This document shows, piece after piece, positions 6,162 through 23,289 of a stretch of 64,000 nt of DNA. The stretch covers positions 29,304-93,303 of the forward strand of contig CAMAQA010000001.1 of NCBI GenBank assembly GCA_945860415.1. The letters run 5' to 3'. Every line of letters starts with the position of its first letter. Position 1 is the first letter of the stretch. The stretch comes from Bacteriovorax stolpii (GTDB lineage Bacteria; Bdellovibrionota; UBA1018). A program made the position numbers and the translations under genes. A model generated the notes under the pieces. The model did not search any database. It was not told where the DNA came from and worked only from the letters and a program-made list of their open reading frames with translations.

Positions 6162-7694
6162 TCAGGATCCAGGATTGCTCGAGGCAGGGTCGGCCTTCCC
6201 CGTGAACTGGCGGGCATTGATTCCGTATTTCTCGAGCTTTCGAAGCAGCGTCTTTTTCGGAATGTTCGCGTGAAGGGCGGTCTGGTTGATCCGTCCCTTG
6301 AAGGCCTTCAGGGCGCTGATCAGGAACTGCCGTTCGAACTCCTCCTTGCTCGCCTGGAAGTCGAGCTTCTGGACCGAAAGCTTGAAGCCCACGTCGATGG
6401 TCGACGGAGTATCGGAGTCGAGCACGGACTCGTCCGAGTCATCCGCATCGGTGCCGGTCACGTCATCTGGAGAGTCCATGAGCCGTCGTCCCGTGATGCT
6501 CGCCGGCATGCTGTCACGAGAGATCTGGTTGCCGGTTTCGATGACAAAAGCATGCTCGATGACGTTCTCGAGCTCGCGGATGTTGCCAGGCCAGGAGTGC
6601 GACTTCAGCAGCTCGAGAGCATCAGCTTCGACGCCGAGGATCATCTTGAGCCCGGGACGGCGTTCGGTTGAAACACCCGAAGCCTGCCGGTGCTGCTGGT
6701 TGAACTTCTCGATGAAGTACTTGATGAGATGTTCGATGTCATTCCGCCTCTCGCGAAGCGGCGGAAGCTGCACTGGAAGCACGTTGAGCCGGTAGAACAG
6801 GTCTTCGCGGAACTGGCCCTGCCGGATCATCTCCTCGAGGTTGCGGTTGGTCGCTGCCACTATCCGAACATCGACTTCGATTTCGCGATTTGCTCCGACC
6901 GGAGTGAATCGCTTGGTCTGCAGGGCGCGCAGGAGCTTGACCTGCATTCCCGCCGAGATGTCGCCGATTTCATCAAGGAACAGGGTGCCGCCGTCGGCAT
7001 ACTGGAACTTGCCGATTTTGCGCTGGTCCGCACCGGTGAACGCCCCCTTCTCGTGTCCGAAAAACTCGCTTTCAATCAGATTCTCGGGAATCGCCGAGCA
7101 GTTCACGGTGACAAACCGGTTATCCTTGCGCGGACTGTTGTAGTGCAGAGCCTGTGCAACGAGCTCCTTGCCCGTGCCGCTCTCGCCCCGGATCAGCACG
7201 GCGGTTTCGACTCGCGACAGCTTGTCGATGACCGAGAACACGCGCTTCATTTCGGAACTCTGGCCCACGAACTCCGTGCCGTTCGGCATCTTGAAGACTG
7301 GCGCAGAGAGGGCGACTCCCTTGACCAGATTGTGAGCCTTGAGCGCCTTGTCGACCATGTAGACCAGGTTCTCGGCCTTGATCGGCTTCTCGAGATAGTT
7401 GTAAGCGCCCTGCCGCGTGGCTTCGATGGCATCGCGCACATTCGCGAAAGCGGTCAGGATGATGACAATGATCGATGGATCATAGGCCTTGATCTCGCGA
7501 AGCGCCTCGATTCCGGATAGGCGTGGCATGTTCACGTCCATCAGTACGAGGTTGTAGCGCCCCGCCTGCACCTTGTTCACGGCCTCCTCGCCATCCGAGG
7601 CCTGGTCGACCGTGTAGTCGCTCTCGGAGAGCGCTGAGGTCACCGATAACCGAAGATCGGCATCGTCATCGACGACAAGAACCTTGAACTTCAT
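6162..7694 (-). CDS. Sigma-54-dependent Fis-family response regulator (NtrC-like)
   Basis: Receiver domain with DDD...D...K. AAA+ domain with GESGTGKE, the GAFTGA sigma-54 contact motif and an Arg finger. C-terminal Fis-type HTH. The 4-nt ATGA overlap with the upstream kinase indicates an operon. Confidence 0.9.
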   Translation of the reverse strand: MKFKVLVVDDDADLRLSVTSALSESDYTVDQASDGEEAVNKVQAGRYNLVLMDVNMPRLSGIEALREIKAYDPSIIVIILTAFANVRDAIEATRQGAYNYLEKPIKAENLVYMVDKALKAHNLVKGVALSAPVFKMPNGTEFVGQSSEMKRVFSVIDKLSRVETAVLIRGESGTGKELVAQALHYNSPRKDNRFVTVNCSAIPENLIESEFFGHEKGAFTGADQRKIGKFQYADGGTLFLDEIGDISAGMQVKLLRALQTKRFTPVGANREIEVDVRIVAATNRNLEEMIRQGQFREDLFYRLNVLPVQLPPLRERRNDIEHLIKYFIEKFNQQHRQASGVSTERRPGLKMILGVEADALELLKSHSWPGNIRELENVIEHAFVIETGNQISRDSMPASITGRRLMDSPDDVTGTDADDSDESVLDSDTPSTIDVGFKLSVQKLDFQASKEEFERQFLISALKAFKGRINQTALHANIPKKTLLRKLEKYGINARQFTGKADPASSNPGS

Positions 7695-9742
7695 GAGGTT
7701 TCTCCCTTTGCTTGGATCGAAGTTTTCCGGCTGGAAATCAGCAGGCCCGGCGCCTTGCCGGTGCGTGCGTGACTCTGTGGAGTTGCCGGGGCCGCGAGAT
7801 CAGTTCGGAGGCGAATGGTGAAGGTGCTTCCCTGGCCAAGCTCGCTGGCCACCTGCACTTCTCCGGCATGTGCTTCAATGAAGTATTTCGTGAGGTACAG
7901 GCCCAGTCCCGATCCACCGACCTTGGCGGTGGCCTCGTTCTTGGCGCGGAAGAACTTCTTGAAGACGTTTTCAAGGTCGGCCGGGCTCATGCCGACTCCC
8001 TGGTCTCGGACGCGGATTTCGACCCAGTCTCCAAGATCGCGTGTCTCGAGATAGATGGTCGACCCTGATGGGCTGTACTTGACCGCATTGTCCACGAGGT
8101 TGTGCAGGACCTTCTGGATGAGCGAAGGATCGAGCCGTATCGGAAAGAGCGGCTCGAGCTCAAGCTCGATCCTGCAGTTCTTTGCTCGCGCCGGAGCCTT
8201 GAAAGTCTCGGCGCATTTTTCAATCAGCTGGTTGACATCCTTGGACTCGAGTCGCGGCAGGAGCTTCGAGCTTTCAATCTTCGCGAGCTCGAGGATGCTC
8301 GAGATGAATCGATTGAGCTCGTCCGTGGATCCGATGATGTGACGAAGGCTTTCCTGGTCGCGCTCGGTCAGGCGAATGGAGGCCTTCATCAGCAACACTT
8401 CAGCCAGTCCCTGGATGCGCGCTACAGGAGTTTTCAGGTCATGCGTCACCAGTGAAAGGAAGTTCGTCTTGAGTTCCTCGACCTGGACGAGCAGCTCATT
8501 CTTGCGCTGGTACTCCCAGCGCTTCCGGTACTCGCGGATCAGGCGATAAGGAACGGCAATGTAGTACGAGATCAGGATTCCGAGAGAAGGGTGCGCGGTG
8601 TCTAGCCAGATGCCGAGCGAGCCCGCCCAGCCATTGAAAAGGAGGAGCGAGGCCAGCCAGAGCAGGCCGATGGCCGCAAAGCTTGCAGCCACTCCGACCA
8701 GCGGCGTGGAATTCATCACCCAGGCAATGACGGTGGCCGAGGCGGCGAAGGTCGTCGCCACCTTCATCCATTCGGGAAGGCGCTCGAGGCCGTCATTCCT
8801 GACCACCGAATCGAAGATCGTGGCGTGGATGGCGAGCTTGGGAGTGGTGAACGAGTCGCTCGAGTAGGGAGTAAAGGCGAAGTCCGAGGAGTCTTCACGT
8901 ACCGACGTACCGACGAGCACCACCTTGTCCTGGAGCGCGGCAGCGGCGACGCGCCCTTCGATCACGTCCTCGAAAGACAGCGTGAGATACGGCATTTCGG
9001 ATTTGGCACGATTTCGCGGCATCGCCGGGTTGCCATGATAACGAAAGTAGAAGTACTGCGCGTCGATCTCTGGAAGCTCGAAGCTGCCGCGTGGAGCGAA
9101 ATCATGCGGGGCAAGACCTGCCTCCGCGGCCAGAAGCGAATGGAATACCGGCCGATCGTACAGCGAGGTGAGCGCACGACGCGTGACCTTGTCTCCTGCG
9201 AAGACATTTCCATCCTTGTGGATCAGCGCGAGTCCATGGGGAAGGGTGCTCAACGGATACGGTGGGACCACTTCTCCGGTGACGTCAAACGGAGTGCCGA
9301 CAACCACCGGAATGGATCGCGCCCGGAGGGCTTCGAAGGCCCTCACCATCCTCTGAGAGGAGTCGAGGCGTGCCGCACCGGACTCGAGCTGCGCCGCGCG
9401 CGACAGATTCGCGAGATAGCCGACGGCCCTGGGGCGGTAGCGTTCGAGCGCCTCGAGGAAGCGGGCATGCGAGCGCAGGCTCAGGGGTGAAATTTCCTGG
9501 AACGCCGAAAGAGTGGAGTCGTCGATCGTGACGAGCACGATGTCGCGCGAGGGCTCGGACTGCCAGCCGTGCCGGACCCGGAGATCCAGCATCGCGGCTT
9601 CTATCGCGTGAAAATCAAAATGGACGAGCACGCCCGTGATGCAGGTGGAGGCCAGCGTCGTGATGACCACGACCTCGCGGGCACGCGCCAGTCGAAGGCC
9701 CCGACGCAGGAATCTGGCAATGGTCTCGCTGAATACACTCAT
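7691..9742 (-). CDS. CHASE2-domain sensor histidine kinase
   Basis: N-terminal TM segment, a periplasmic-type domain of about 300 aa, three clustered TM helices, then HisKA (H-box LVTHDLKTP) and HATPase (DNAVKY...GGSGLGL). Confidence 0.8.
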   Translation of the reverse strand: MSVFSETIARFLRRGLRLARAREVVVITTLASTCITGVLVHFDFHAIEAAMLDLRVRHGWQSEPSRDIVLVTIDDSTLSAFQEISPLSLRSHARFLEALERYRPRAVGYLANLSRAAQLESGAARLDSSQRMVRAFEALRARSIPVVVGTPFDVTGEVVPPYPLSTLPHGLALIHKDGNVFAGDKVTRRALTSLYDRPVFHSLLAAEAGLAPHDFAPRGSFELPEIDAQYFYFRYHGNPAMPRNRAKSEMPYLTLSFEDVIEGRVAAAALQDKVVLVGTSVREDSSDFAFTPYSSDSFTTPKLAIHATIFDSVVRNDGLERLPEWMKVATTFAASATVIAWVMNSTPLVGVAASFAAIGLLWLASLLLFNGWAGSLGIWLDTAHPSLGILISYYIAVPYRLIREYRKRWEYQRKNELLVQVEELKTNFLSLVTHDLKTPVARIQGLAEVLLMKASIRLTERDQESLRHIIGSTDELNRFISSILELAKIESSKLLPRLESKDVNQLIEKCAETFKAPARAKNCRIELELEPLFPIRLDPSLIQKVLHNLVDNAVKYSPSGSTIYLETRDLGDWVEIRVRDQGVGMSPADLENVFKKFFRAKNEATAKVGGSGLGLYLTKYFIEAHAGEVQVASELGQGSTFTIRLRTDLAAPATPQSHARTGKAPGLLISSRKTSIQAKGETS

Positions 9743-11684: not shown

Positions 11685-14129
11685 TCACTCTTCGGTCGCT
11701 GCGCGAATCGAGGTCGGAAACTCTGGAGAGCAGGATTCCTCCGAGGGCTCGTGGCCCTGAATGTACCTTTCGCTGATGATTTGCTCGAGTGGACAATTCG
11801 GCGCGGCGCGATTTCCGGATTTGCGGTCCACGCGAACCTCTACCAGGTGGGGGCTGACCGGGAACGGGGTGACCGGCTCTCCGCGGTGCGCCTCCTTCAT
11901 GAACGCCGTCCAGATCGGAAGTGCAGCCACGGCGCCCGTGAGCTTGGGCAGCTTCTTGGTTTCCGGAAGGACCTGGTCCCAGCCCACCCAGACCACTGCC
12001 GTCAACTGGGGCGTGAAGCCGGCGAACCAGCTGTCGCGGTGCAGGCTCGTCGTTCCCGTCTTGCCGGCAGACGGCCTGTTCCAGCCCCAGGCTTTGGCGG
12101 GAGCCGCGGTTCCCTCGGTAAATACGGAGCCCATCAAGTCGATCAGGAGGTCGACGGACGCAGGATCTGCGACCCACTGAGGACGGTGCACATAGCGGGC
12201 TACCGGAGTTCCGTCGTCTTCGGTGATCGCACGGATGACGGTGAGATCATCCGATTGTCCGTGGTTGGCGATGGTGGCGTAGGTTTTCAGGAGTTCGACC
12301 GGAGAAAGCTCCGCCACTCCGAGCGCCAGTGAGGGCACCTCGGGAAGTTCGCTCGTCACGCCCAGCGCTCGTGCAGTGTTGATGACCTCGCGGATTCCGA
12401 CCTCATGTCCGATTCGTGCGGCGGCGGTGTTGATGGAATTGGCCACGGCCTGCCTGAGGCTGATCCAACCCCGAAACTGAGGATCGTAATTTTTCGGCGT
12501 CCAGTTCTGGCGACCGCGATCGTAGCTGAGCGTGAACGGGGCATCTTCAACGGGGTAGCCCGGACCCAATGCCACGCCGTTCTGGTCCTTGCGCCTTTGA
12601 ATCGCCGCAAGAAAAAGGAGTGGCTTGAACGTGGAGCCGACCTGTCGCCTCATGTTCAGGATGCGGTTGAACGTGGATTCGGAGTAGTTCTTTCCGCCCA
12701 CCAGCGCACGGATGTACCCAGTCGACTGCTCGACTGCGGCAAGCGCGCCCTCGAGTCGCTGCCCGCTCGCAGTCGCGCCGAGCTTCAGGTCCTTTTCGAG
12801 CCTGGCCACACCGCTCGCCACGGCACGCTGGGCGGCAGTATTCACTTCCGGATTGAGGGTCGTGTACACGCGCAGTCCGAGGTCCGGTATCTCCTGTTCG
12901 GAGTAACGATCCGAAAGCTTCTGCTGGAGCATGGCCTTCACGTAATCGATGAAGAACGGAGCCTTGAGGTTCGAGGCGGTCTGAGACGGCGCAAGGCGGA
13001 TGGGGTCGCGAAGCGCATCGTCAAGTTCGCCCCGGGCGATGTGACCGGTCTCGTTCATCTTCCTGAGCACGAGCTTTTGACGCTCCATTGCCCGCTCGCG
13101 ATAGCGGTACGGCGAATAGTAGCTCGGCCCGCGGATCAGGGCGGCCATCAGGGCCGCTTCGTGAATCTCGACCTCCTCGAGGCGCTTTCCGAAAAAGTAC
13201 TTCGCGCCCTCGGATACTCCATGGATTTCGAGGCTGCCGATCTGGCCGAGGTACACTTCATTCAGATATCGCTCCAGGATGGCTTCCTTCGAGAAGCGGA
13301 GCTCGAGAAGCAGGGCAAGGAAGACCTCGTTGGCCTTCTTGAAGAGATCCTTGTCATGCCTCTGCATGAGATTCTTGACGAGCTGCTGGGTGATCGTGCT
13401 GCCGCCCTGCGCGAATCTCATCTGCCGAATGTTCACCCACATCGCACGCGCAAGGCCCCTCCAGTCGAGTCCGATGTGCTCGAGGAAGTGCTGATCTTCT
13501 ATGGCCAGGATGGCCTGCCAGATGGAGGGTGGAATCTCCGACAGGGGCACCCACTCGCGGACCTGCCGCGTCGTGGAGCCTCCGGACTGGAGAGCGCCGA
13601 TGAACTCCGGCTCCAGGTAGATTTCAGGTATCTCTTCGTCTCCCGCGCGAATCGCCTCCAGCTCGGCATCAGCCTTGGTTCCTTCGAACTCGAGCCGGAG
13701 TGGCACCTGCGATTCTGCAAGCTTCCATGTCGCATGGTCTGTCGGAATCAGATTCTCGGGATAACGGATCGGATGAAGCTTCAGCTCGATCACTGCGCCG
13801 TGTGATTGGTGCGAGTAGCCGAGTGCACGCAGCCGCTCTTCCATGTCGGCTCTCGGCATTCCCGGGGCCACTCGCGTGACATCCGAATAGAGACGAGTGG
13901 GAATCCACTGTTGCTGCTGCTGGAAGCTCGTCTCGAGCTGTCGGAAGAGCACGCCCAGGTAAATGGCAAGGGCAACCCAGGGGGCCAAGAGGATGAGCAT
14001 CAGTCTGACAATGCGGTGCATCGGCCCGGGAATCTCCTTGACGGAGAAAATAGCCGTCCATAGAACCAACATCAATGGCAGGAGACTCCAAGCAGATGAA
14101 AAAAATCGGGTTTTGCGTTGGCTTTGCAC
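11685..14129 (-). CDS. Class A penicillin-binding protein (bifunctional transglycosylase/transpeptidase, PBP1A type)
   Basis: Transglycosylase motifs EDQHF and GGSTITQQ. Transpeptidase motifs STFKP, SxN and KTGT. The start could be the internal Met at about 14021, which would begin a TM helix. Confidence 0.85.
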   Translation of the reverse strand: MQSQRKTRFFSSAWSLLPLMLVLWTAIFSVKEIPGPMHRIVRLMLILLAPWVALAIYLGVLFRQLETSFQQQQQWIPTRLYSDVTRVAPGMPRADMEERLRALGYSHQSHGAVIELKLHPIRYPENLIPTDHATWKLAESQVPLRLEFEGTKADAELEAIRAGDEEIPEIYLEPEFIGALQSGGSTTRQVREWVPLSEIPPSIWQAILAIEDQHFLEHIGLDWRGLARAMWVNIRQMRFAQGGSTITQQLVKNLMQRHDKDLFKKANEVFLALLLELRFSKEAILERYLNEVYLGQIGSLEIHGVSEGAKYFFGKRLEEVEIHEAALMAALIRGPSYYSPYRYRERAMERQKLVLRKMNETGHIARGELDDALRDPIRLAPSQTASNLKAPFFIDYVKAMLQQKLSDRYSEQEIPDLGLRVYTTLNPEVNTAAQRAVASGVARLEKDLKLGATASGQRLEGALAAVEQSTGYIRALVGGKNYSESTFNRILNMRRQVGSTFKPLLFLAAIQRRKDQNGVALGPGYPVEDAPFTLSYDRGRQNWTPKNYDPQFRGWISLRQAVANSINTAAARIGHEVGIREVINTARALGVTSELPEVPSLALGVAELSPVELLKTYATIANHGQSDDLTVIRAITEDDGTPVARYVHRPQWVADPASVDLLIDLMGSVFTEGTAAPAKAWGWNRPSAGKTGTTSLHRDSWFAGFTPQLTAVVWVGWDQVLPETKKLPKLTGAVAALPIWTAFMKEAHRGEPVTPFPVSPHLVEVRVDRKSGNRAAPNCPLEQIISERYIQGHEPSEESCSPEFPTSIRAATEE

Positions 14130-15505
14130 TGGGGATGGTCGTAGCCGGCATGCCTGCCGTGGCGCACGCGTTGGATCTCGACTGGGCGGGCGACTTCCGG
14201 GCCGAAAATCACTGGATCAGCAACTACCGGATGGATGCGGCCAACGCATCGAGCGGCGGCTACTCTGTTTCGGGAACCGACGGCAAGGCCCAGTTCCAGA
14301 CGCTGTTTTTGCGCCTGAAGCCGCGCGCTGTCATCAACGACAACGTCTATCTCCGCAGCGAGCTCTGGTTTGGCACTCCCGCATACGGGTTTTTCGGTGA
14401 TGCACCTGCTGCAGGTGATCTTGCTTCTTACAACTCCACTTTTTCGGGCGGCGGCACCGTCACTGCCCAGCGCTTCTGGGCTGAGGTCCTGACGGACGTC
14501 GGAAACGTCCATGTGGGGCGCGCGCCGCTGAACTGGGGCCTGGGACTGGTGTGGAGTGCGGGTGACGGACTCTATGATCGCTTTCAATCGACAGGTGACG
14601 TGATCCGAATGGTGTCCAAGTTCGGCGCATTTTCGTTCAGTCCGGCTGCAGTCAAGTACCGGACATCAGGATCAGTCAGTGGGGGCGGAACTTCAGAATA
14701 TGCCGTGGCCCTCAAGTATGAAAACCCCGACGAGGATTTCGAAGGCGGAGTGAATTTCATTCGCCGAGTGGGTGGAGGGTTTCAGGCCTTCGGCAATAGT
14801 CCGGGCCTTTCCGGAGACATCAATTCGACCACCTGGGACATCTTCACCCGCAAGAAGCTGGGAAGATTTGATCTCGCAGCCGAGGCCCCTGTGACGAGCG
14901 GAAAGATCTCGGGTGTCGAAGCAAGCACCTATGCCATTGCGGCAGAAGCCAGGTATGCGGCCAGCGATGTGTGGAACTTTTCGGCCAAGGCAGGGCATGT
15001 TCCCGGCCAGACGGGTGACGCATCCAAGATTCGCGGGTTTTTTCTGCATCCCAACTACAAGCTGGGCCTGATTTTGTTCAATTATCAGCTGGCGAATCTC
15101 AGTGGGTCGAATGTTGGGGCAGGAGCTACGGGCGGATCCGTTTTCAATTCGCCGATCACCAATACGAACTATCTGCATCTGGCCGGGGCCTACACGCTGA
15201 GCAAGTGGCAGTTTCGCGGATCGTGGACCTACGCGCGGGCAGTTGAGGCGGCGGGAACGAGCGGCACCTACTTCAACCAGTGGACGCGGGGATTCGAGTC
15301 GGCCGGAGGGCCGGTCGCGCAGTCGAATTCTCTGGGCTGGGAGCTCGACGGAGGTGCGACGTTTCAGTGGGATGACCAGTTTGAGTTCAAGGCAGATGCA
15401 GGGCTGTTCATGCCGGGCGATTTCTTCAAGTACACTGCCACAACCCCCGAAAACCAGACCGGCACCATCCTGGCTGTCGTGCTGGGCATCGGCGCGAAGT
15501 TCTAA
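14075..15505 (+). CDS. Outer-membrane beta-barrel protein (porin-like, unknown family). Probable start is the Met at about 14096 (MKKIGF...)
   Basis: Signal peptide. Alternating amphipathic beta-strand pattern, Gly/Ser/aromatic-rich. C-terminal ...GIGAKF ending in Phe, as in beta-barrel OMPs. Confidence 0.5.
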   Translation: MAGDSKQMKKIGFCVGFALGMVVAGMPAVAHALDLDWAGDFRAENHWISNYRMDAANASSGGYSVSGTDGKAQFQTLFLRLKPRAVINDNVYLRSELWFGTPAYGFFGDAPAAGDLASYNSTFSGGGTVTAQRFWAEVLTDVGNVHVGRAPLNWGLGLVWSAGDGLYDRFQSTGDVIRMVSKFGAFSFSPAAVKYRTSGSVSGGGTSEYAVALKYENPDEDFEGGVNFIRRVGGGFQAFGNSPGLSGDINSTTWDIFTRKKLGRFDLAAEAPVTSGKISGVEASTYAIAAEARYAASDVWNFSAKAGHVPGQTGDASKIRGFFLHPNYKLGLILFNYQLANLSGSNVGAGATGGSVFNSPITNTNYLHLAGAYTLSKWQFRGSWTYARAVEAAGTSGTYFNQWTRGFESAGGPVAQSNSLGWELDGGATFQWDDQFEFKADAGLFMPGDFFKYTATTPENQTGTILAVVLGIGAKF

Positions 15506-19249: not shown

Positions 19250-19639
19250 TTACTTCTTCTCCATCCGGCAATTGCCGTCGAAGTAGGCTCCCGGGTGGAT
19301 CTCGATCGAAGGGCTTTCGAGATCACCGATCACACGGGCCGTGGGTGACAACACGAGACGCGTCCGGGCGTGCACTCCGCCACGCACGAAGCCCTCGACC
19401 CAGATCGTGTCGGCATCGATCTCACCTTCGATGATTCCCGATTCACCGAGGATGATCAGGCTGCCTGGTTTTCCGGCAAGCCTTCCGCGCAAAGTGCCAT
19501 GGAATCGCGATACCGAGTCGAGCTCGAGTGTCCCCTCAAATCGACTTCCCTCGGAGATCAGCGTGACCTCCGATTCGTGGAGCCCCACGGAGAACTCGGG
19601 TGGAGATTTATCAACTTTCTTCGGGGCCTGCTGCTTCAC
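19250..19639 (-). CDS. Bactofilin family cytoskeletal protein
   Basis: About 130 aa with repeating G-x-hydrophobic beta-helix windings (EGTLELDSVSRFHGTLRGRLAG..., IEGEIDADTIWVEG...) typical of the DUF583/bactofilin domain. Confidence 0.7.
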   Translation of the reverse strand: MKQQAPKKVDKSPPEFSVGLHESEVTLISEGSRFEGTLELDSVSRFHGTLRGRLAGKPGSLIILGESGIIEGEIDADTIWVEGFVRGGVHARTRLVLSPTARVIGDLESPSIEIHPGAYFDGNCRMEKK

Positions 19640-20621
19640 GAGCTCCTCCTCGAGTCTGGGGCACCTTCAGGACTTCACGGACGAGCAGCTTCTGTGTCCC
19701 GTCGTTCCATGTTCCAAAAAGAAGGATTTCAATCGTCTGTATGGTCGAGTCCACCGCCGGAAACTCGACCTTGGTCTGGCGGAAGCGAGACACGGAAAAG
19801 AATTCACCTTTTTCGTGGTCGAACAGGAATGGTGAATCCATTCCACGGACGACCCCCGATGGATAGCCCAGCAGCACGTCCGGACCCCGAGCCAGCACGA
19901 TGATCCTGCCCTGCTGGTTGTCGCCCTCGCTTCCCGTGAAGCGGATATCGAATTGAAGCTTGAGCTTGCGGCCCTGCCACTGCGTGATGGGTGAACTGAT
20001 CTCGAGCGGAACGGAAGGACGAGCGATGATCGGAACCTCGCCAGAGACAGCAGCCGGAAATGAGCGGAAGGCCACGACTGCGGGGGCGGTCGAGACGGTC
20101 TTGGTCAGGACCGTGGGTACGCAGGGCGCGGCAACTGCCACGGGAAGCGGCGATGGTGCAGCACAGGTGACGGGTGCGGTGGTTGCCTGCGTGGCGCTGG
20201 TCGGCACCACCGAGGCAGCAGGGAAGGGGGCCGGGGGGGCGATCGGGATCGCCACTGCCGACTCTGCCTTCTGTTTCGCGACTCCCAGCAGTCGAATCTG
20301 TTGTTCGAGCTCGCGAAGACGCTCGGGTTGCGCCCGGTGGCTGAGGCGCCAGTAGTGAATCGTGGTCGCGACCGACAAAATCGTGACGAGAAGCGAGCCC
20401 CCAATGTACCAGCCCAGGCGCGAGATCCAGGCCAGCGGAACTTCGAAGTTTCGCGAAGCGAGTCCATCCTGGAAAACCAGGAGCTGGATGGCTTTCCTCA
20501 GAGATTTGGGTGCCTGAACCTTCATGGAAGTCCTGAAAGGGTATCGGCGTGAAAAATGGGTGTCAACTTTCAGGCCCGTCGTGCCGAAAGGTTTTTTGGG
20601 ATGAAGCTGCTTCTCGTACAT
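19611..20621 (-). CDS. Hypothetical single-pass membrane protein translationally coupled to bactofilin (probable start Met at about 20525)
   Basis: One TM helix, a coiled-coil segment, a Pro/Ala/Thr-rich linker and a C-terminal domain of about 150 aa of unknown fold. Its 3' end overlaps the bactofilin start by 29 nt. Confidence 0.5.
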   Translation of the reverse strand: MYEKQLHPKKPFGTTGLKVDTHFSRRYPFRTSMKVQAPKSLRKAIQLLVFQDGLASRNFEVPLAWISRLGWYIGGSLLVTILSVATTIHYWRLSHRAQPERLRELEQQIRLLGVAKQKAESAVAIPIAPPAPFPAASVVPTSATQATTAPVTCAAPSPLPVAVAAPCVPTVLTKTVSTAPAVVAFRSFPAAVSGEVPIIARPSVPLEISSPITQWQGRKLKLQFDIRFTGSEGDNQQGRIIVLARGPDVLLGYPSGVVRGMDSPFLFDHEKGEFFSVSRFRQTKVEFPAVDSTIQTIEILLFGTWNDGTQKLLVREVLKVPQTRGGAREAAGPEES

Positions 20622-22205
20622 CCAAGGCTGGGATCCGGTGACCCTCTGGTCCGTTCGCTCCAGGCGACGGGCGTGGTGGTCCTCCTTGCCAATACCGTTG
20701 TACAGGCAAAGCAGCTTCTTTCAGCACACGCGCTGACGCTCGAGGTGGCGGTGATCCATCGCGAGCCCCAGGGGCTGGAGCTCATTACCTTCATCAAGTC
20801 CTCCGCCTCGCTCTCGGATCTACCCTACATCGTCATCTCCTCCGAATGGACGGATGCCGATTTCGCCCGTCATCAGCAGTCCTCGGAAGGTGCCAATGCC
20901 TACCTGCGTGAAGAGCGATGCGCGCAGGATCTTCGATTCGTCATCGAGCAGGTTCTCGGTGCAGAGTTGTCGATGGCCCTCGCGGCACCCGCTGCGGCAA
21001 CGGGCTCGGCCCTTTCCGGTCTCTCATTGCCTCAGGAGCCTCTTTCGGGAGTAAGCGTCCGGATGGAGGATGCCAACAGCGTCTTCCAGCCCACTTCCAT
21101 GATTTCGCAGAACTTCTCGCTGGAGGTGGATTCCTCGGAATCACCGAAGAGTGCATCTCCTTCCATTGAAGGAGCCACACGGGTGGTATCGCGCGATCAG
21201 CTCGAGCCGGCTCCGATCGAGATTGCTCCTGTCCTGGATGTCGCGCCCGTTTCTCCGGAAATCTCGGTCGTGGAGCCAGTCCACTTTGATTCCGGTGTGA
21301 GCATCTCACAGATGCCGGAGCTGCCTGTCGAGTTGCTATCTCCTGTCGAGGGGCTACCTGCAGAGTCCTCGCCGGCCGTGGAAATTTCTCTGGTCGAAGC
21401 CGAGCGATCGAGTCCCGCCCATGAACCCGCCCCGGATCCGGTTGCCGAGCTGCCGTACCTGTTCAATCAGGCCGCCAGGCCGCGTCCTGCTCCGCTAGTC
21501 GGAGATGCCGTGGTGCCGGGCGGTGCGGCACAGTCTCCGGATATTGAAACATTGAAGCGTTATCTCGCACTTCGTGAGCAGGATGTGGCGGCTCTTTCCG
21601 CCCAGCTGCACGAGGCGCGACGCCAGATTCGGAACTTGGAGTCCGACCTCAGGCAGAGCCATGCCTTGATGGAGGAGCAGGGTTACCGGCTCGAAGGCAA
21701 GGAAAAGCGCGAGCAGGAGTTTGAGCGTGAGAAGGCGCTCCTGATCCAGGGACTGCAATCTGAAATGGATGAGCTGCGCTTCCAGATGAAGACGCGCTCG
21801 GATAAGGCCCGTTCGCTCGAATCACAGGTTCGAGAGACGGCCCAGGAGATGGAGCGGCTTCGCGAGCGAGTCCGAAACGACATCCGGAAGATCCGAGTCC
21901 GCGAAAAAGAGCTCGAGAATCGGCTGGAAATCGTGCGCAAGGACTCCGAGGCACTGCTCATGGCCCGCGAGGCAACCATCCTGGAACTCAAGCGCAAGCT
22001 CGACACGGCCGAGTTCAATCTCGACCTGATGCACGATCGCCTCGGACGCGAGAAGGAAAGTTCATCGGAGCTTCGCGAAAAGCTGCTGAGAGCATCGCAG
22101 GCAGTCCGTCTGGCAGGCGGCTTGCTTGACCCTGCGGACTCGGATGCAGGCACCCCTGAATCATCCGGCCGCTCCGCAGAGCGTACGGATCGAAAAGTCT
22201 CCTGA
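20556..22205 (+). CDS. FrzS/RomR-like protein: pseudo-receiver domain + Pro-rich linker + long coiled coil (probable start Met at about 20601)
   Basis: N-terminal CheY-like fold in which the acidic pocket residues and the phospho-Asp are replaced (LLLVHPRLG, AVIHRE). A P/V/E/S-rich repetitive linker. C-terminal heptad-repeat region of about 200 aa. Confidence 0.5.
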   Translation: MGVNFQARRAERFFGMKLLLVHPRLGSGDPLVRSLQATGVVVLLANTVVQAKQLLSAHALTLEVAVIHREPQGLELITFIKSSASLSDLPYIVISSEWTDADFARHQQSSEGANAYLREERCAQDLRFVIEQVLGAELSMALAAPAAATGSALSGLSLPQEPLSGVSVRMEDANSVFQPTSMISQNFSLEVDSSESPKSASPSIEGATRVVSRDQLEPAPIEIAPVLDVAPVSPEISVVEPVHFDSGVSISQMPELPVELLSPVEGLPAESSPAVEISLVEAERSSPAHEPAPDPVAELPYLFNQAARPRPAPLVGDAVVPGGAAQSPDIETLKRYLALREQDVAALSAQLHEARRQIRNLESDLRQSHALMEEQGYRLEGKEKREQEFEREKALLIQGLQSEMDELRFQMKTRSDKARSLESQVRETAQEMERLRERVRNDIRKIRVREKELENRLEIVRKDSEALLMAREATILELKRKLDTAEFNLDLMHDRLGREKESSSELREKLLRASQAVRLAGGLLDPADSDAGTPESSGRSAERTDRKVS

Positions 22206-23289
22206 ACCTTCGCAGCTTCGGCTTGTGGTGAGTGATTTCCACCTCGGGACGGGGCGGTATTTTGCGGACGGTTCCGTCAATATTCTCGAGGATTTCCTGT
22301 ATGACGACGAGTTCGCCGACTTCCTCGAGTTTTATTCCACTGAAAAGTACTGGGACACTCGAGTCGAGCTGGTACTCAACGGCGACATCCTGAACCTGCT
22401 TCAGGTTGACGATTTTGGAGTGCACACCCACCTGATCACCGAGCGGGCCACGATGCGCGCCGTAGAGCGAATCGCGGCCGGACATCCCTGCTTCTTCGGG
22501 GCACTGCGCAGGTTCTGCCAGGCTCCGGGGCACTCGATTACATATATTGTCGGCAATCATGACGCAGGAATGCTCTGGCCGGGGCCTCGACGCGTGTTCG
22601 AGCGTGCCGTCGGAACTTCGGTGAAATTCCATGATCAGGCGTATCGATTCGACGGCGTGCATATCGAGCATGGCCATCAGCTCGAGGATCTCTGCCGAAT
22701 GGAGATGTCATGCCCCTTCATCACCAAGGGCCTGCCCGAGCCGGTGCTGAACCTGCCCTGGGGCTCGATCTTCGTGGCCGTATGGCTCACCCGCATCAAG
22801 CTGGAGCGTCCTCATGTGGACAAGGTCAAGCCGTTCTCCTCGTTTCTGAGGTGGATGCTGATTCACGACACGGGCTGGGCGGTAATGACCATCCTGAGAA
22901 TGGGCAAGTTTCTCTGGGACACGATCCTGTGGAGGCCCCGCTACCATATCGTCGAAGGTGTTCGGGCCACCTGGGGCATGATCCAGCAGGCCACCGTTTA
23001 TCCGAGCTTCGACAAGATGGCCGCAAGAGTGCTTGGCGAGAACCCCGAAGCCCAGGTGGTGATCTTCGGCCACACCCACGTTCTTCGGTATCGAAAATTT
23101 GAAGGCGGAAGGGAGTACTTCAATGAGGGCTCGTGGAATGAGGTCACGAATCTCGAGCTGGGAGAGTTTGGCACTCAGACGAAGCTGACCTATGCGATGG
23201 TCGAGAGCGGCGCACCAGGGGCGCGTCCCCGGGTGCGCCTCAAGCGCTGGATGGGAACCTGGAAGCCCGAGATGGATTTGCTCGGGTAA
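22126..23289 (+). CDS. Calcineurin-like metallophosphoesterase (start uncertain: ATG 22126 overlaps the upstream gene; a GTG at about 22225 is an alternative)
   Basis: Motifs SDFHLG, NGDILN, GNHD and GHTH in canonical order. Confidence 0.7.
   Translation: MTLRTRMQAPLNHPAAPQSVRIEKSPEPSQLRLVVSDFHLGTGRYFADGSVNILEDFLYDDEFADFLEFYSTEKYWDTRVELVLNGDILNLLQVDDFGVHTHLITERATMRAVERIAAGHPCFFGALRRFCQAPGHSITYIVGNHDAGMLWPGPRRVFERAVGTSVKFHDQAYRFDGVHIEHGHQLEDLCRMEMSCPFITKGLPEPVLNLPWGSIFVAVWLTRIKLERPHVDKVKPFSSFLRWMLIHDTGWAVMTILRMGKFLWDTILWRPRYHIVEGVRATWGMIQQATVYPSFDKMAARVLGENPEAQVVIFGHTHVLRYRKFEGGREYFNEGSWNEVTNLELGEFGTQTKLTYAMVESGAPGARPRVRLKRWMGTWKPEMDLLG

Follow-up and report, generated by a model that had tools for sequence, protein, structure and literature searches.

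In a 64-kb stretch of a 115-kb metagenomic contig from Bacteriovorax stolpii (CAMAQA010000001.1; this whole stretch is called the window below), a bactofilin gene and three neighbours form two back-to-back units. On the minus strand, a bitopic membrane protein (MEM) is followed by the bactofilin; on the plus strand, a pseudo-receiver/coiled-coil protein (PR) is followed by a calcineurin-like metallophosphoesterase (MPE). Taken as a whole, the arrangement is best explained as a bactofilin anchored by a membrane adaptor, set beside a motility or attack-phase signalling unit, an account to which we assign an even chance. Between the two units lies a conserved regulatory junction. The units appear, from their promoter-like sequences, to use different sigma factors, and a link between PR and bactofilin at the protein level is possible.

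Gene models and loci compared

The four-gene arrangement proposed in an earlier sequence-only reading was recovered in full, with each open reading frame in place to the nucleotide. The sizes given there for MEM and PR, 336 and 549 amino acids, are correct as maximal readings, but homologues and gene callers support 304 amino acids for MEM, and homologues 534 for PR. The likely true lengths of bactofilin, MEM, PR and MPE are 129, 304, 534 and 381 amino acids, respectively. With the corrected starts, the divergent MEM and PR genes are free of overlap, with a gap of 75 nucleotides between them (20526–20600).

Counts for the PR operon in relatives refer to 75 species-level loci, which were found by a genome scan with PR. 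There was no cultured Bdellovibrio among them, all being from uncultured Bdellovibrionota, although the exact-word patterns of the scan could miss distant orthologues. The MEM and PR homologues with a named source likewise all come from metagenome-assembled genomes of Bdellovibrionota or Oligoflexia. Several loci belong to the GTDB class UBA1018 ('Bdellonasia'), namely FG-1, FG-2, UBA1018, JAMPXJ01 and CAIRTR01. Described members of this class are vibrioid cells that bear a single thick flagellum at one pole and are pointed at the other, and some, which have no mamK, are magnetotactic; FG-type cells, which lack mamK, have their magnetosomes aligned along the inner curve (PMC13200544).

A bactofilin coupled to a bitopic membrane protein

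The bactofilin gene (19250–19639, minus strand) begins with a GTG codon, read directly from the sequence, behind a GGAGGAG Shine-Dalgarno sequence. Its product matches Pfam family PF04519 over profile positions 1–97 of 98, scoring 77.6 bits (E = 9e-22; cut-off 27.9 bits). The gene overlaps the upstream MEM reading frame by 29 nucleotides, confirming the coupling of bactofilin to a membrane protein that had been claimed, and in relatives the pair is conserved and tightly coupled. Bactofilin adjoins MEM in 60 of 60 loci found from PR and in 33 of 35 found independently from MEM. In 40 of 65 loci, the MEM stop codon and the bactofilin start are merged in an ATGA; the rest show another short overlap or a gap.

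The window bactofilin starts with MKQQAPKKVDK and has no membrane-targeting sequence of the MFSKKKK type. Its orthologues (n = 65) also have short N-termini from which the published MFSKKKK consensus is absent; this sequence is common in the bactofilin family, not defining. Membrane attachment of a bactofilin can come from membrane-bound clients (PMC12448750). A link to the known bactofilin of B. bacteriovorus, Bd3904, was rejected, as Bd3904 stands in a parAB operon, a different context. On the other side of the bactofilin gene, relatives carry a convergent pair of M16-family peptidase genes (L007, 8307–11017; L017, 5830–8726). An M16 peptidase gene lies directly beside bactofilin in 31 of 49 relatives; the pair is absent from the window, whose lineage either lost it or never had it.

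MEM (19611–20525, minus strand) matched no Pfam or NCBIfam family. The 336-residue frame (19611–20621) is the maximal one, and the start used by homologues and gene callers is MKVQ (20525). The MEM family is large, with 851 matches at E ≤ 0.001 among 50%-identity cluster representatives. An AlphaFold2 (AF2) model built with 46 homologues had a mean predicted local distance difference test (pLDDT) score of 82.7, and it reproduces the layout that had been read from the sequence, a single-pass membrane protein with a coiled coil and a Pro/Ala/Thr linker. Residues 12–30 form a β-hairpin, VLVFKDxLASRxFxVPL (20436–20492, minus strand), with strands at 12–19 and 22–30 and a pLDDT of about 90. The hairpin stands directly before the transmembrane helix, and each of V17, F18, R25, F27 and W33 is conserved in 90% or more of the sequences. 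In residues 33–91 (20253–20429, minus strand), the transmembrane helix (about 33–59) runs into a charged helix/coiled coil, PERLRELEQQI, as defined by a hydrophobicity scan and AF2 helices at 31–64 and 67–91. The hairpin, the transmembrane helix and the following helix were modeled with a pLDDT of about 85–98, and the Pro/Ala/Thr linker (residues 96–148) as disordered. The C-terminal domain beyond it had been called unassignable. In the model, residues 156–288 (19662–20060, minus strand) fold into an immunoglobulin-like (Ig-like) β-sandwich with the signatures QQGRIIVLARGP and GExFSVSRFR. Its core, residues 160–287, has a pLDDT above 95, and a fold search assigns it to generic Ig-like domains.

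The Ig-like domain is probably periplasmic. Cysteine occurs once in 116 homologous β-sandwich domains, compared with 0.55% in the PR receiver and 0.79% in bactofilin, cytoplasmic proteins of the same genomes, and this depletion fits a periplasmic location. Lys/Arg number about 5.4 in the N-terminal tail of MEM (about 40 residues), a charge expected to hold the N-terminus in the cytoplasm. Immediately around the transmembrane helix, Lys/Arg average 2.1 on the N-terminal and 3.1 on the C-terminal side. Overall, we consider it likely that the N-terminus lies inside and the C-terminal domain in the periplasm. The linker has exactly two cysteines (VTCAAPSP...AAPCVPT; 20070–20130, minus strand) in both the window and a close relative, P0003 (78% identical). 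Beside a β-sandwich family essentially free of cysteine, this pair is compatible with a periplasmic disulfide.

A membrane-bound bactofilin client with a comparable layout is LmdC. It binds the bactofilin BacA via a conserved cytoplasmic β-hairpin, which is followed by the transmembrane helix and by a coiled coil in the periplasm, and its gene lies beside bacA (PMC10945521). By analogy, we propose that the N-terminal hairpin of MEM is a bactofilin-binding element. Because MEM has an LmdC-like N-terminal layout without an M23 domain, we infer that it may serve as a non-enzymatic adaptor. A profile search with the N-terminal part (33 segments covering the hairpin, transmembrane helix and coiled coil) returned four short fragments and no M23 proteins, too few to be informative.

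A pseudo-receiver protein and its operon partners

PR (20601–22205, plus strand) belongs to a family of more than 315 homologues. Its 549-residue frame is maximal, and an alignment of 54 homologues sets the start at MKLLLV (20601). Homologues, alignment and an AF2 model divide the protein into a pseudo-receiver, a disordered linker and a coiled coil. The pseudo-receiver occupies residues 1–120 (20601–20960, plus strand). Pfam Response_reg does not match the single PR sequence; the PR family profile matches CheY structures (E = 3.5e-8). The AF2 model shows a (βα)5 fold with a pLDDT of 96–97, and Foldseek comparison with receiver structures gave target-normalised template-modelling (TM) scores of 0.74–0.85.

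That this receiver is degenerate had been noted from the sequence, and the alignment bears it out at each site in question. The acidic pair is replaced by N/H-P. At the phospho-Asp site, H53 and R54 are nearly invariant and E55 is invariant. The conserved Lys is replaced by W or E, leaving Thr/Ser as the only catalytic residue kept. PR falls within the definition of a pseudo-receiver, a group in which Glu commonly substitutes for Asp (PMC12632262). Alignment and model together identify PR as a genuine CheY-fold pseudo-receiver, predicted to be non-phosphorylatable.

The repetitive linker and long coiled coil of the earlier description were also seen in the model. Residues 128–311, rich in Pro, Glu and Val, are disordered, and residues 315–505 (21543–22115, plus strand) form a single helix of about 190 residues with a pLDDT of 92–97 and many invariant positions. 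This helix presumably dimerises as a coiled coil. Where the linker ends, the alignment revealed a near-invariant short motif, (E)LPYLF...GDAVVPGGAAQSPDxET (residues 285–317; 21453–21551, plus strand), in which G301, P306, G307, G308, P313, D314 and T317 are invariant. With a pLDDT of about 50, the motif is not folded alone, and it looks like a docking motif.

MPE (22144–23289, plus strand) matches PF00149 with 30.6 bits against a cut-off of 21.5. All five catalytic motifs, DxH, GD, GNHD, H and GHxH, are invariant among 14 orthologues; the invariant residues are D31, H33, G80, D81, G137, N138, H139, D140, H176, G309, H310 and H312. Between motifs IV and V, about 130 residues form a conserved, hydrophobic insertion. 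Upstream of the conserved RLVVSDFH, the only in-frame starts are ATG 22144 and TTG 22126, so MPE overlaps the 3′ end of the PR gene by 62–80 nucleotides (62 with the ATG). The overlapping calcineurin-like phosphoesterase claimed earlier is confirmed, and its place in the PR operon is supported. No match to LpxH was found in NCBIfam and there was no close solved structure; PDB sequence and profile searches returned weak Vps29-type matches only.

In most relatives, a gene for a receiver-GGDEF protein stands between PR and MPE; it directly follows PR in 46 of 57 loci. MPE itself is found no more than 3.5 kb downstream of PR in 37 of 52 and directly after it, as in the window, in 5 of 57. The upstream neighbour of MPE is PR or the receiver-GGDEF gene in 43 of 44 loci. 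The GGDEF motif and the RxxD I-site are intact in all 47 receiver-GGDEF proteins (loci L014–L084, e.g. L018, 6971–8452). The position equivalent to D344 of PleD, checked by counting back from the PleD GGEEF motif, is Thr in 40 of them and Ser in 7. Ser/Thr at this position is the signature of Hypr-GGDEF domains, which reportedly make up only 0.17% of GGDEF domains and are tied to the synthesis of cyclic GMP-AMP (cGAMP) (PMC9140294). Orthology with Bd0367/DgcA was considered and rejected, as only the Hypr signature is common and both size and domain layout differ. The receiver-GGDEF gene is absent from the window. The only match to the query there (6165–7799, minus strand) is weak (E = 2.8e-10) and probably represents the receiver domain of some other response regulator.

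Two interlocked promoter-like sites

The region between MEM and PR has a median length of 73 nucleotides and is exactly 69 nucleotides long in ten loci, close to the 75 of the window. Its alignment shows an almost invariant GTGTCAACTT core. Facing MEM and bactofilin is a sigma-70-like promoter, TTGACA-N17-TACCCT (20538–20566, minus strand), which ends 12 nucleotides before the MEM ATG. This pattern has a single match in the 64-kb window, against 0.08 expected by chance. Across relatives, the pattern TTGAC[A/T]-N16-18-TAnnnT points toward MEM in 48 of 53 loci, with a 17-nucleotide spacer in 45, and the distance from −10 to start codon is mostly 5–12 nucleotides.

Facing the PR operon is a candidate sigma-28 (FliA)-like promoter, TCAAC-N16-CCGAAA (20563–20589, plus strand), identified by pattern match. 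The corresponding pattern, TCAA[C/T/A]-N15-17-CCGAnn, is found toward PR in 46 of 53 loci (16-nucleotide spacer in 45), and its −10 element stands 9 nucleotides from the ATG in 39 of the 46. On opposite strands, the two −35 elements have 4 bp in common. In B. bacteriovorus, the FliA consensus is TTAAG-N16-CCGATA, and two-thirds of the attack-phase promoters mapped in that species are driven by it (PMC3627812). The PR-side pattern has the spacing and the −10 element of this consensus.

Rearranged loci provide a natural control. Where PR is split from MEM (L022, L051 and L054), only the sigma-28-like site is kept, in the same position; where MEM is split from PR (L004 and L009), only the sigma-70-like site is kept. 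That separated units each keep their own motif supports both promoter assignments. The PR-side distance between −10 and start codon is too short and too constant for a Shine-Dalgarno sequence, so the PR mRNA, judging from the sequence, is probably leaderless or nearly so. More generally, the short distances on both sides (9–12 nucleotides) suggest leaderless or nearly leaderless mRNAs. Sites that appear to serve different sigma factors suggest that the two units are differently regulated rather than co-expressed. A search for RNA families and riboswitches found none in the 14–28 kb part of the window.

A second sigma-28-like match, TCAAG-N16-CCGAAA (15426–15452, plus strand), lies inside the 3′ end of a gene for a 476-residue protein with no suitable open reading frame downstream, and is probably due to chance. 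The 476-residue gene itself (14075–15505, plus strand) has no Pfam match and is flanked by fliL and a gene for a class A penicillin-binding protein. Its position is common to the window and two related loci (L001, L006, L009), and its product measures 493–513 amino acids in two relatives.

Linkage and separation of the units

Linkage of the genes is conserved in related genomes; its absence, along with a canonical receiver and ordinary neighbours, had been named as grounds for giving up the earlier claim, and those grounds fall away. PR has MEM and bactofilin divergently adjacent in 60 of 63 informative loci. Approached from the other side, MEM has PR adjacent in 14 of 15 metagenome loci and in 5 of 6 loci of the first MEM-found set. 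The background level of synteny was gauged from neighbouring gene pairs: alanine dehydrogenase with a metallo-β-lactamase-fold gene (92% adjacent), fliL with alanine dehydrogenase (88%) and kdsB with pyrG (97%). Since housekeeping neighbours are equally syntenic, adjacency alone is no proof of one functional module. The sequence-only reading had suggested one such module, for which adjacency gives no support of its own; the sigma factors apparently differ too. Overall, the observations of that reading are confirmed and its interpretation is borne out in part.

In at least five loci, the units stand apart, with PR lacking MEM in L022, L051 and L054, and MEM lacking PR in L009 and L099. In the magnetotactic FG-1 genome, PR, receiver-GGDEF and MPE (L022) and MEM and bactofilin (L004) are on different contigs, indicating that the two units are separable.

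Proposed roles and alternatives

In the account we prefer, bactofilin, which lacks a membrane-targeting peptide of its own, would be supplied with a dedicated adaptor, MEM, in a proportion fixed by translational coupling. With the MEM N-terminus in the cytoplasm, the hairpin would dock on the bactofilin polymer, as has been shown experimentally for LmdC, and the transmembrane helix would tether the polymer to the inner membrane. The coiled coil, Pro/Ala/Thr spacer and Ig-like domain would project into the periplasm, where they would link the scaffold to a partner in the envelope. The outcome would be a non-enzymatic, bactofilin/LmdC-like morphogenetic pair, for which a role in cell shape or pole architecture would be most likely, in vibrioid cells. 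The second unit would provide a dimeric coiled-coil scaffold with a non-phosphorylatable receiver, followed by MPE with its catalytic motifs intact. It may act in motility or attack-phase signalling, with the PR scaffold positioning or regulating its operon partners. At the overlapping −35 elements, two holoenzymes would compete for occupancy.

Several observations weigh against this account. Binding of bactofilin by the MEM hairpin is argued from the LmdC analogy, the Ig-like fold of the C-terminal domain points to no function, and the Lys/Arg counts on the two sides of the transmembrane helix leave the positive-inside rule ambiguous. The sigma-28 call is a consensus match only: the −35 element fits the B. 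bacteriovorus consensus at three of five positions, and the −10 element of the window is CCGAAA where the consensus has CCGATA. The window offered no sigma-28 promoter as a positive control, and a relaxed scan gave scattered, uninterpretable matches. With no GGDEF gene in the window, the cyclic-dinucleotide link may not apply at this locus.

The two units may be functionally unrelated and held together merely by their interlocked promoters, a region of 70 nucleotides, in a syntenic segment. We regard this as a serious alternative, if one somewhat short of an even chance. It agrees with the 88–97% background adjacency of housekeeping pairs, the overlapping −35 elements would make any breakpoint harmful to both units, and in the few loci where the two have parted each functions with its own motif. 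However, the length of the intergenic region and the two motifs are unchanged to the nucleotide in loci whose proteins are only 35–50% identical, a constraint that exceeds neutral need, yet is no proof of shared function. At the opposite extreme, all genes could form a single polar landmark module, in which MEM-anchored bactofilin would recruit a FrzS-like PR and, through PR, the MPE or the cyclase to the pole. Bactofilins scaffold polar clients in other bacteria, the invariant, unstructured motif of PR suits partner docking, and the divergent adjacency (60 of 63 and 14 of 15 loci) comes with a shared promoter region. Nonetheless, unrelated neighbours are equally syntenic, the units separate cleanly in at least five loci and apparently depend on different sigma factors, and the likeness of PR to FrzS is only architectural; we therefore think a single module unlikely.

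Individual proteins also admit other readings. MEM might have the topology of ZipA, with the N-terminus outside, a periplasmic hairpin, and a cytoplasmic Ig-like domain that binds bactofilin on a flexible tether. Its order of transmembrane helix, charged helix, Pro-rich linker and globular C-terminal domain does mirror ZipA, and more Lys/Arg follow the transmembrane helix than precede it. Against this stand the near-absence of cysteine from the β-sandwich compared with 0.55–0.8% in cytoplasmic proteins, the Lys/Arg content of the N-terminal tail, which disfavours export, and the match of the conserved, membrane-adjacent hairpin to the cytoplasmic hairpin of LmdC. A ZipA-like arrangement is accordingly doubtful. 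For MPE, an LpxH/LpxG-like role in lipid A synthesis, tied to the downstream kdsB instead of PR, is brought to mind by kdsB following MPE in the window and by the hydrophobic insertion, which recalls the LpxH cap. But LpxH appeared neither in NCBIfam nor among the PDB sequence and profile matches. Adjacency of MPE to kdsB (14 of 37 loci) falls well below that to PR or receiver-GGDEF upstream (43 of 44), and MPE overlaps the PR reading frame. This role is very improbable, and the assignment of MPE to LpxH or to another known enzyme was rejected, given the lack of an NCBIfam match and the weak Vps29-type matches.

The most far-reaching interpretation would join MEM, bactofilin and PR into a cytoskeletal system specific to a lineage that includes UBA1018. 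In it, a bactofilin ribbon with a non-enzymatic envelope adaptor of LmdC layout would set the curvature or the 'bottlenose' pole, and might offer a magnetosome-aligning track in magnetotactic members without mamK. The sigma-70/sigma-28 overlap would switch its expression reciprocally with that of a signalling scaffold for cGAMP or cyclic di-GMP, between growth and attack phase. We hold this out as a long shot.

Returning to the two-unit account, the membrane-bound bactofilin clients that have been characterised well, LmdC and PbpC, are enzymes of the cell wall, whereas the MEM layout carries only an Ig-like domain. If MEM binds as proposed, a bactofilin scaffold would be wired to the envelope by a purely structural adaptor, and at least 850 sequence clusters, so far without annotation, would be defined as one family through MEM. 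The PR family is likewise large and unannotated; it carries an H-R-E active-site motif and, in relatives, is mostly linked to a rare Hypr-type GGDEF protein. The interlocked sigma-70-like and sigma-28-like promoters are a testable candidate for a switch between growth phase and attack phase in predatory bacteria. As all carriers found are uncultured, experiments are limited to heterologous hosts. The parts are individually of known kinds, and what is new is their combination, the missing enzyme domain, the association with Hypr-GGDEF in relatives and the interlocked promoters.

Comparison with known systems

MEM resembles the FtsZ membrane tether ZipA in its transmembrane anchor near the N-terminus, followed by a charged stretch, a linker rich in Pro and a globular domain that would bind a polymer of the cytoskeleton. 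The N-terminal tail of ZipA is almost absent and its C-terminus is cytoplasmic, whereas MEM has a hairpin tail of about 32 residues and a C-terminal domain family nearly devoid of cysteine.

The sequence-only reading had likened PR to both FrzS and RomR of Myxococcus xanthus. The second comparison does not fit. RomR (Bd2761 in B. bacteriovorus) shares with PR a receiver followed by a Pro-rich low-complexity region. Its C-terminus is a Glu-rich tail without a long coiled coil, whereas that of PR is a 190-residue helix. The FrzS comparison holds for the layout. FrzS and AglZ have, like PR, a receiver fold without the phospho-Asp and then a long coiled coil; FrzS localises to the pole and binds SgmX via its α3-β4-α4 surface. 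The FrzS receiver superimposes on that of PR with a target-normalised TM-score of about 0.8, which ranks it 8–13 among the Foldseek matches, like canonical receivers, and FrzS does not appear in the top 60 PDB sequence matches of the PR profile. The likeness is therefore architectural and not specific, and homology to FrzS in particular was rejected, since FrzS is no closer than ordinary receivers. PR differs from it further in its disordered linker of about 180 residues, the invariant GDAVVPGGAAQSPD motif, the genomic context and a candidate promoter of sigma-28 type. By alignment and model, PR is best placed as a new pseudo-receiver/coiled-coil family of the FrzS/AglZ architectural type.

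The receiver-GGDEF proteins of relatives have Ser/Thr at the specificity position, as do GacA of Geobacter and Bd0367/DgcA of B. bacteriovorus, both Hypr GGDEF enzymes (PMC9140294), and may synthesise cGAMP. At 450–570 amino acids, with an extra middle region, they are not evident orthologues of Bd0367.

For the first unit, the closest parallels are the bactofilin–client pairs. In Caulobacter crescentus, the membrane-bound client PbpC binds BacA by a cytoplasmic N-terminal peptide and can replace the membrane-targeting sequence of the bactofilin (PMC12448750). PbpC itself is a penicillin-binding protein of class A whose cytoplasmic tail is long and unstructured, whereas MEM has no enzymatic domain. 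In the BacA–LmdC systems of Hyphomonas neptunium and Rhodospirillum rubrum (PMC10945521), the client gene stands beside the bactofilin gene, as here, and encodes a bitopic protein with the order hairpin, transmembrane helix and coiled coil, which is also the order predicted for MEM. LmdC ends in an M23/LytM peptidase, MEM in an Ig-like β-sandwich that matches no Pfam or NCBIfam family. Moreover, the bactofilin paired with MEM has no membrane-targeting peptide, unlike that of BacA–LmdC, and the likeness between MEM and LmdC is one of predicted layout. On this analogy, the bactofilin/MEM pair is best described as a putative new, non-enzymatic variant of the bactofilin–client theme represented by LmdC and PbpC.

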